Assembly (NCBI GenBank): GCA_030681135.1
Contig: JAUXXF010000004.1
Coordinates: forward strand, 699-64,698
DNA: 64,000 nucleotides
Direction of reading: 5' to 3'
Source of the DNA: Chlamydiales bacterium
GTDB lineage: Bacteria > Chlamydiota > Chlamydiia > Chlamydiales > SM23-39
Under the pieces are notes generated by a model. That model had not been told where the DNA came from and searched no databases. It was given only the letters and a program-made list of their open reading frames with translations. Position 1 is the first letter of the stretch. The number at the start of each line of letters is the position of its first letter. Shown one piece after another: positions 49,495 through 50,634 of the stretch. Made by a program: the position numbers and the translations under genes.

Positions 49495-50634
49495 TTGGAA
49501 AAAGAAGCCCTTCAGCAGACAGCATCTCATATTCTTTCAGCTGCTCTTTTCGAAACGTTCCCGATGATCGATCTTTGGGTGGCGCAAGCTACCGATATTG
49601 GATTTGTCTGCGAATGTTTCTTTCCTCACCCGGTTCATGCAGACACCCTTCCGTTGCTTGAGCAAAAAATGAAACAGATTGTTCAAGAAGCGAGACCTAT
49701 CCGTCTGCTTGAAATGGTGCCTGTGAGCGCTATGGCTCTTTTGCATAAAGAGGGGCATGTCGAGCAAGTTGAGCTTCTTAAAGAACTTGAAAGATCTGCT
49801 GGAACTTTGGTCGAGCTCATCGAAATGGGTTCATTCCATCAGCTAACGCAAGGTCCTTTATTAAGCTCCACTGAAGAACTGAAAGCCTTTAAAATCAACT
49901 CTTTGGAAATGCTTCCAAACCAGGGTCTTCGTATCGAAGGAATTGCGGCTTTTTCTAAAGAAGAGCTGAAAGCATTTTTGAAAAAACTGTCCAACTTTAA
50001 AGAAAATAATTATCGCTCGATCGGCGAAAAAATGGGTTTTTGGATCTACAAAGATGATGAGATGGTTTGGTTTGAAAAGGGGATTGAAGCGCGCCAGAAG
50101 ATCCAAGACCTCTTTTTTCAAGAAGTTCCTTTGATAGAATGTAGAGGGGCTTTTGAAAAAATCTTACCTAGCATCAAGAAAAATTGCCGTATTTTACACC
50201 CTGAGCCAGCCATAGATCTTCGCTCTTCGCTATTTGCTGTCCAGGGGCTTGAATTTTTTAAGCCTGAGGAATTTGTAAAAGTTTTGAATTCTTCCTTGCA
50301 TTTGGTTCATAAAACCCTTATCATGTTGGGCTTTGATTGTTGGGTGAAAGTCCTCGGAAAGCCTAGGGTTTGGAGAGGGCTAGAGCTGCCAAGCGGGATC
50401 AAGGTTGAAGAAGTTCAAGCGGCAGAGACTCGCATTGATTGGATGGTAGAAGATTCTTTAGAAAGGCCAGTGCAAGTCATCACTTTGAAAAAACCTCAAA
50501 GAGTCTCTGAGAAGAGAGAATTGTTGATTTGCGAAGCTTTTATTGAAAGAATTTTGGCTCTTATGTTAGAAAAGAATCTGAGAACTTTGTTTTTGGTTAA
50601 AAACTTGAATAGGAAAGCTGACTTTGAGAATTAA
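49495..50634 (+). CDS. threonyl-tRNA synthetase-derived protein lacking editing, catalytic and anticodon-binding signatures (pseudo-ThrRS)
   Basis: Collinear with the ThrRS N2/SAD domain and a remnant of the class II core (e.g. 'RIEGIAAFSKEELKAFLKKLSNFKENNYRSIGEKMGFW' vs E. coli '[38 protein letters not shown]'). It is only 379 aa. The TTG start is uncertain. Confidence 0.55.
   Translation: MEKEALQQTASHILSAALFETFPMIDLWVAQATDIGFVCECFFPHPVHADTLPLLEQKMKQIVQEARPIRLLEMVPVSAMALLHKEGHVEQVELLKELERSAGTLVELIEMGSFHQLTQGPLLSSTEELKAFKINSLEMLPNQGLRIEGIAAFSKEELKAFLKKLSNFKENNYRSIGEKMGFWIYKDDEMVWFEKGIEARQKIQDLFFQEVPLIECRGAFEKILPSIKKNCRILHPEPAIDLRSSLFAVQGLEFFKPEEFVKVLNSSLHLVHKTLIMLGFDCWVKVLGKPRVWRGLELPSGIKVEEVQAAETRIDWMVEDSLERPVQVITLKKPQRVSEKRELLICEAFIERILALMLEKNLRTLFLVKNLNRKADFEN

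Follow-up and report, generated by a model that had tools for sequence, protein, structure and literature searches.

Among the aminoacyl-tRNA synthetases (aaRS), HisRS, SerRS and a few others are known to have catalytically dead paralogues that took on new roles. SLIMP, for instance, is a pseudo-synthetase partner of the mitochondrial SerRS (PMC10570016; PMC9437257) and, as in the HisZ-HisG system, a dead paralogue is under selection here for a role other than aminoacylation, which it fulfills via protein-protein contacts of the synthetase fold. Duplicated genes are also described for threonyl-tRNA synthetase (ThrRS), namely T1/T2 in cyanobacteria and ThrRS-L/TARSL2 in vertebrates (PMC9437257, PMC5909460). 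These duplicates, however, stay active synthetases, and the ThrRS duplicates listed in a 2022 review of aaRS duplications are all active. In the following, we describe a 379-residue open reading frame (ORF) from a Chlamydiales bacterium, referred to as pseudo-ThrRS, which likewise represents a second ThrRS-derived gene beside a housekeeping copy. It lies in a 64,000-nucleotide stretch of DNA (GenBank assembly GCA_030681135.1, contig JAUXXF010000004.1, positions 699 to 64,698 of the forward strand), which was analyzed as a whole and is called the window in this text. We consider it probable that this protein is a catalytically dead pseudo-synthetase, which is kept by selection and works without catalysis. 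While SLIMP and HisZ derive from SerRS and HisRS and form complexes that have been shown experimentally, pseudo-ThrRS derives from ThrRS and still has the region of the motif-1/core interface. In full-text literature searches, we found no account of a pseudo-synthetase derived from ThrRS, be it in Chlamydiae or in other bacteria.

The relationship to ThrRS, which an initial annotation had proposed from collinearity seen by eye, is borne out by profile comparisons. Residues 9-211 match positions 3-215 of the NCBIfam thrS profile TIGR00418 (E=6e-12, 45.2 bits), without reaching its equivalog cut-off of 383.65 bits, and residues 4-184 match the ThrRS of S. aureus (1nyq; E=1.9e-9). With a profile built from 14 homologs, residues 5-209 align to ThrRS residues 78-291 in the Protein Data Bank (PDB) at E=2e-22. 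This ThrRS region runs from the N2 editing domain through the linker helix into the beginning of the catalytic core, and the homology in the N-terminal part (residues 4-211) covers the N2 editing domain, the linker and motif 1. Pfam by itself would miss this relationship (tRNA_SAD, E=0.012, 16 bits against a cut-off of 24); its Anticodon_2 match (E=0.088) is spurious.

The C-terminal half was tested separately, as it was the weakest part of the by-eye homology claim. For this purpose, residues 212-379 of 26 family members were aligned and compared to an alignment of 19 genuine chlamydial ThrRS. The two are collinear over ThrRS residues 381-533 (hhalign P=3.5e-6, probability 88%), with the same pairings that had been proposed by eye, i.e. 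DDAHIF with QGLEFF, the strand KIDIHIRDAIGR with RIDWMVEDSLER and the motif 3 helix SIERFFGILIEH with FIERILALMLEK. The link also holds via intermediates, because longer paralogs from the same genomic slot match both sides, the C-terminal half of pseudo-ThrRS with P=8e-13 and residues 72-634 of ThrRS with 1e-86.

Structure prediction gives a similar picture. The AlphaFold2 model (predicted local distance difference test, pLDDT, 77.6; predicted TM-score 0.70) has low confidence only at residues 109-111, at residues 215-234 (pLDDT <50) and in the tail. In Foldseek searches, it matches full-length E. coli ThrRS (1qf6; E=6e-19), the isolated editing domain (1tje; 1e-6) and dozens of ThrRS crystal structures that contain just the catalytic and anticodon domains (E~1e-7); given this domain content, the last group of matches must come from the C-terminal half. 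Motifs 1 and 3 of the class II core are present as structural elements, and D320, E351, R352 and E359 are retained. The ORF is thus homologous to ThrRS in both halves, and it shares the N2 domain, linker helix, motif 1 and C-terminal core with ThrRS (TIGR00418; PDB 1qf6, 1nyq, 6vu9) in the same order.

By contrast, with 379 residues compared to about 640, it lacks the TGS domain, the motif 2 loop, the zinc ligands, a working editing site and the anticodon domain of ThrRS. There is no room for a TGS domain, since only 9 nt of open frame precede the start codon and residue 4 already belongs to the N2 homology. Within N2, the editing residues (E. coli numbering) are changed from H73 to Q, D180 to Q, C182 to T and H186 to L, with H77 kept, so that one survives of five that are invariant in 32 true ThrRS. 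None of the four residues considered at the aminoacylation site, three zinc ligands and the motif 2 arginine, is left: the motif 2 loop is deleted in the alignment, and the zinc-ligand positions C334, H385 and H511 are occupied by R, L and L in the family alignment, where the register of motif 3 differs slightly between the two alignments used to place the zinc histidines. An HGTP anticodon-binding domain (PF03129) is not matched in Pfam, and the protein ends about 20 residues past the motif 3 helix. These losses largely coincide with those listed in the initial annotation, which had already noted the missing TGS and anticodon domains, the change of CxxxH to T...L, the deleted motif 2 loop and the lost zinc ligands. 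It was right that the HxxxH pair is broken, but not about the register 'H...A', which is shifted by a few positions, since the first histidine is a glutamine and the second is retained; likewise, DDAH is lost, but its counterpart is VQGL, one residue off from the proposed QGLE.

In all likelihood, judging from its residues and domains, pseudo-ThrRS is therefore a descendant of ThrRS that is unable to activate threonine, charge tRNA or edit. In this respect, it resembles AlaX and the crenarchaeal ThrRS-ed, which also feature an editing-type domain of AlaRS or ThrRS without aminoacylation activity. Those stand-alone proteins, however, keep the editing residues and deacylate mischarged tRNA, whereas pseudo-ThrRS has lost four of the five, with both HxxxH and CxxxH broken.

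The cell has another gene for charging tRNA-Thr. The assembly (1.94 Mb; estimated completeness 97%, contamination 1.1%) encodes a genuine thrS on a different contig (C32), with 639 residues, all motifs and 668 bits against the TIGR00418 cut-off of 384. In a phylogenetic tree, its product falls into a fully supported clade of chlamydial ThrRS, together with the ThrRS of genomes from the same genus, and is therefore not a contaminant.

The paralog is not a plain pseudogene. Same-genus comparisons of nonsynonymous and synonymous substitution rates (dN/dS) are saturated at synonymous sites (dS>1), and the analysis was redone with two closer relatives (88-90% protein identity). Here, dN/dS is 0.13-0.15 at a dS of 0.39-0.50, with 0.10-0.14 for the N-terminal and 0.12-0.26 for the C-terminal half, compared to 0.10-0.115 for the neighboring enzyme gene folC. 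There are no frameshifts or stops relative to close relatives, and of the more than 40 genomes examined, almost all have an undisrupted ORF, in spite of the saturated synonymous divergence between them. The protein sequence is thus maintained by purifying selection. Among the exceptions, a single stop in the matches from two genomes (G001 and G002) lies at the variable C-terminal end, and one locus (L076 in G034) reads as two overlapping ORFs. In a further locus (L020; G019:C2:128474-132277), both the paralog and infC are split by stops or frameshifts; as infC is broken in the same six-contig, 63%-complete assembly, these breaks most likely reflect a sequencing or assembly error and not pseudogenization.

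As a side observation, dS differs about threefold between adjacent genes when the window is compared to two related loci (L046, L047), with 0.39-0.50 in pseudo-ThrRS and folC and 0.13-0.18 in infC and rpmI. Between two other loci (L008 and L010), adjacent genes differ even more (1.13 versus 0.14). Possible causes of this unevenness are a constraint on codon usage in the translation genes and local recombination.

Homologs of pseudo-ThrRS share 34-90% sequence identity with it. We read the flanks of about 60 loci, and in every one of these copies the paralog lies just upstream of infC-rpmI-rplT-pheS, on the same strand; apart from one exception, it is preceded by a tRNA-Val(GAC) in all loci that extend sufficiently far upstream. 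The operon context is thus as it was initially described. A library search with a family profile returned at least 260 clusters (50% identity; E<=1e-30), which form a continuum of lengths from 300 to 612 residues. In the sister families, the forms with 593-621 residues keep a class II core and an HGTP anticodon domain recognizable by Pfam, a 509-residue form keeps only the core, 495-residue forms keep the anticodon domain with a collapsed core, and in forms with 337-430 residues neither is recognizable. Even within the window's own family, the anticodon domain is still present in at least one genus (G008). Pseudo-ThrRS is the most reduced form of this large chlamydial family of dead ThrRS paralogs.

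The long paralogs (565-612 residues) are members of this monophyletic family and likewise lie between tRNA-Val and infC. Like pseudo-ThrRS, they are devoid of the zinc cysteine, the motif 2 arginine and the editing histidines, yet they keep PF00587 and PF03129, whereas in pseudo-ThrRS both the anticodon domain and the central part of the core are deleted. In 143 representatives, neither H73, H77, C182, H186, C334, H385 and H511 nor the motif 2 arginine are conserved, all of which are invariant in the 32 true ThrRS. This applies to each length class, be it to the editing histidines, the zinc ligands or the motif 2 arginine, and the zinc cysteine is absent from the common residues of its column in all of them. 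Since the catalytic residues are conserved in no length class, the whole family is predicted to be catalytically dead, the long forms included.

In public databases, the short forms are annotated as 'hypothetical', while many long forms carry the label 'threonine--tRNA ligase' (P0021, P0074, P0077 and others, from metagenome-assembled genomes (MAGs) of Chlamydiota and Parachlamydiaceae). Given the loss of catalytic residues, this label is probably a systematic misannotation, which can mislead metabolic reconstructions and marker-gene phylogenies.

With regard to their origin, 25 paralogs including pseudo-ThrRS fall on one side of a long branch with 100% support, away from all sampled true ThrRS, consistent with a single origin of the family. 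The family is old, at the level of the order. In an approximately unbiased (AU) test, a clade of the paralogs with chlamydial ThrRS is not rejected (p=0.57). The data are accordingly compatible with an old duplication in the chlamydial stem, in which the copy in the thrS slot lost its function and a copy elsewhere kept it; as the test allows the joint clade, we make no claim of a horizontal acquisition of a working ThrRS. That the slot upstream of infC-rpmI-rplT-pheS is the usual position of thrS, and thus common to ThrRS and pseudo-ThrRS, is shown by an Omnitrophota MAG and a Bacteroidota MAG, in which a genuine thrS precedes infC-rpmI-rplT. Two loci encode apparently genuine ThrRS of 591-602 residues without a TGS domain (L057, 2935-4707; L058, 2908-4713), in which the class II core scores 165-167 bits and the tRNA_SAD and anticodon domains are present. 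In the Omnitrophota MAG (L058), this TGS-less ThrRS lies directly upstream of infC-rpmI-rplT, and in the uncultured bacterium (L057), the contig ends after the gene.

Taken together, the initial annotation had seen in this ORF a retained, remodeled ThrRS paralog in the ancestral thrS position and not a random hypothetical, and this conclusion holds: profile similarity to ThrRS domains is found in both halves, the genome has a full-length thrS elsewhere, selection is purifying, and homologs of the ORF precede infC in many families of Chlamydiota, the less eroded of them with the Pfam core and anticodon domains still in place. Its further proposal of a regulator or scaffold is an inference concerning function. 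The significance of the family lies in its size, its age and its spread across many chlamydial families, at a highly conserved junction of the bacterial translation operon map.

Which parts of the protein matter can be read from the family. The N2 domain, linker, motif 1 and C-terminal core are found in at least 90% of the representatives; the linker and motif 1 region occurs in 99% of them, conservation is highest in the N2 fold, and residues 212-250 are the least conserved. As judged from the reduced forms, the selected function would need neither the anticodon domain nor the middle of the core, which leaves the N2 fold, linker, motif 1 and C-terminal core of pseudo-ThrRS as the parts to which the conserved function can be assigned. 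As the anticodon domain is absent, RNA recognition of the anticodon type cannot be the function of pseudo-ThrRS, which argues against anticodon-based models for any function common to the family. Moreover, the protein is acidic (pI 6.0), with a net charge of -10 in the N2 part. The charge analysis offers no support for a basic RNA-binding surface, and the acidity argues against a general RNA-binding role.

The N-terminus of the protein depends on the choice of the start codon. The frame opens three codons before the TTG start, right after a TAA. An alternative ATG at codon 24 would yield 356 residues, which is the gene-caller version in database records (P0001, P0003). However, residues 1-23 are conserved in close and distant homologs and correspond in alignments to the first N2 helix of ThrRS; the TTG is therefore the true start, and the ATG lies too far downstream.

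The start also lies close to a tRNA gene. A tRNA-Val(GAC) lies directly upstream of the paralog in 22 of 23 related loci, and in 14 of 18 the first possible start codon follows 0-23 nt after its 3' end. This start is usually TTG in the window's own family, and several loci have no room for a normal leader, which suggests that the 5' end of the mRNA may be made by tRNA 3' processing; on our reading of the sequence, the tRNA-Val gene encodes no CCA. At the other end, the infC start candidates TTG 50624 and ATT 50630 overlap with the stop codon of the paralog (50632-50634), and infC adjoins or overlaps the paralog with a tight gap in all related loci. An overlap of stop and start together with a non-canonical infC start is typical of translational coupling and IF3 autoregulation. 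An Rfam scan of the whole window returned two tRNAs only and no T-box, thrS operator-like family or L20 leader, and a scan for promoters and terminators between positions 49200 and 53200 gave counts at chance level, which are uninformative on transcription units.

We propose that pseudo-ThrRS would act as a non-enzymatic binding module. It would probably be made from a co-transcript with tRNA-Val, starting at a TTG behind a leader of no more than 23 nt, and its translation would probably be coupled to that of infC, whose non-AUG start overlaps with the stop codon of the paralog. As a tentative best guess, which we hold with less than even confidence, it binds a protein partner via the retained motif-1/core interface and the acidic N2 domain; candidate partners would be the basic translation proteins encoded in its operon or, comparable to SLIMP with SerRS and HisZ with HisG, the genuine ThrRS, which it would contact via the class II interface region. 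A more specific version, which we regard as doubtful, is a trans-acting subunit for translation control, which would bind ThrRS or IF3/L35/L20 via the motif-1/core region and the I-S-S-L-Q-x-I-x-K helix described below, and whose synthesis would be gated by the 3' processing of tRNA-Val and by IF3-sensitive initiation at the TTG of a near-leaderless mRNA. If this were true, the unit of tRNA-Val, pseudo-ThrRS and infC would serve as a feedback module, through which tRNA maturation and ThrRS activity would be tied to the supply of initiation factor. The likelihoods of the partner, leader and tRNA-acting readings here and below are conditional on the identity of the protein as a pseudo-synthetase and on one another, and what remains beside them falls to functions of a kind not considered here; together with the likelihood of a relic, they are rough guides and not shares of one total.

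Several observations weigh against a function maintained by selection. The gene is dispensable in some lineages: the paralog is missing in nine of 21 relatives whose infC region was read, eight of them in the window's own family and one (G026) in another, where the tRNA-Val lies about 100-170 nt before infC with nothing in between. In eight of the sampled genera of the window's own family, it was lost cleanly. A class-wide sample contains more such loci, and all eight sampled genomes taken as Chlamydiaceae (L109-L116), of 1.0-1.3 Mb in one or two contigs, are without the paralog; a search for a diverged hidden copy detected none in them. A genuine thrS never adjoins infC in the genomes that lack the paralog. 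In addition, pseudo-ThrRS evolves 5-10 times faster than infC, and domains were lost repeatedly, which would also fit a weakly selected relic. Finally, the conserved positions are mostly residues inherited from ThrRS that maintain the fold. An exception is a paralog-specific helix after the motif 2 position, I-S-S-L-Q-x-I-x-K-T-L..L-G-F, which is far more conserved than in real ThrRS; S266, for example, reaches 0.94 in the paralogs, compared to 0.19 for the commonest residue at the same position in true ThrRS. Further positions specific to the family are M74, W192 and K163. It could be argued that the gene is a decaying relic, a former thrS heading to deletion with no function of its own, given the loss of all catalytic features, the continuum from 612 to 300 residues, the outright loss in several lineages including the genomes taken as Chlamydiaceae, and an evolutionary rate above that of its neighbors. 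We find this very improbable, as the family is old at the order level and monophyletic, almost every ORF from the more than 40 genomes is undisrupted at dS>1, dN/dS remains at 0.13-0.15 at unsaturated distances, and the sole copy with several internal stops sits where infC is also broken.

The arrangement around infC would also be expected if the ORF served mainly as a translated leader, with ribosomes re-initiating at the non-AUG infC start, an IF3-sensitive TTG start on a short leader, made by tRNA-Val 3' processing, providing IF3 feedback and the protein being a by-product. This would account for the overlap of its stop codon with both infC start candidates and the tight spacing in relatives, for the start 0-23 nt past tRNA-Val in 14 of 18 loci, with TTG in the window's own family, for the absence of a credible promoter between the tRNA and the ORF, where promoter-like matches are at chance level, and for a domain content that appears free to erode. 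A leader, though, has no need for some 380 folded residues, and neither the confidently predicted fold nor the helix that is more conserved than in real ThrRS would be expected of a by-product; amino-acid selection acts on both halves in a similar manner as on folC (dN/dS 0.13-0.15), and lineages without the paralog express infC directly behind tRNA-Val. We thus deem this explanation unlikely. Less likely still, and on a par with the relic, is an enzyme or RNA-binding factor that still acts on tRNA, for instance a remodeled trans-editing protein or tRNA-end binder akin to AlaX or archaeal ThrRS-ed that uses its N2 domain on tRNA-Val or tRNA-Thr as possible substrates. While conservation within the family is highest in N2, tRNA-Val is a conserved physical neighbor, and the editing-site aspartate (E. 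coli D180) and cysteine are kept in 119 and 62 of the 143 representatives, pseudo-ThrRS itself has Q, T and L at the positions of the aspartate, cysteine and histidine, and the HxxxH pair is R/Q...E in most of the family. Furthermore, the N2 part is strongly acidic with its net charge of -10, tRNA_SAD stays below the Pfam threshold, and there is no anticodon domain for tRNA selection. Binding of a protein partner hence remains our preferred, if tentative, reading.

The coordinates of the gene, its segments and its neighbors are given in Table 1.

Table 1. Features of the pseudo-ThrRS locus, in window positions
Feature	Position	Strand	Remarks
tRNA-Val(GAC)	49396..49471	+	ARAGORN and Rfam; ends 23 nt before the ORF start
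pseudo-ThrRS ORF	49495..50634	+	379 aa; TTG start; TAA stop 50632-50634
N2 (editing-domain-like) fold, residues 1-150	49495..49944	+	TIGR00418 E=6e-12; PDB ThrRS profile E=2e-22
Linker helix and motif-1 region, residues 151-211 (SKEELKAFLKKL...W..KG...)	49945..50127	+	aligns with ThrRS residues 218-281
Collapsed segment, residues 212-250	50128..50244	+	replaces a longer ThrRS stretch with the zinc cysteine and motif 2 loop
Class II core remnant, residues 251-362	50245..50580	+	helix after motif 2, sheet strands, motif 3 helix; zinc histidines gone
infC (IF3)	50624..51169	+	without ATG; candidate starts TTG 50624, ATT 50630
rpmI	51173-51367	+	conserved cluster; Pfam calls on relative L047
rplT	51378-51737	+	conserved cluster; Pfam calls on relative L047
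pheS	51790-52821	+	conserved cluster; Pfam calls on relative L047
tRNA-Ser(UGA)	52836..52923	+	closes the cluster; also after pheS in L054

The neighborhood of infC differs in the genomes taken as Chlamydiaceae. In these eight loci (L109-L116), the tRNA-Val(GAC) lies about 2.4 kb from infC and points away from it. In one of them (L109), a nusB-like gene and murB are found upstream of infC on the opposite strand, and a truncated rRNA-methylase-like ORF precedes the tRNA-Val. In the window, just upstream of the tRNA-Val and divergent from it, two tandem paralogs of 132 and 133 residues (48372-49268, minus strand) encode predicted membrane proteins rich in glycine and alanine, of which a related locus (L046) has one copy.

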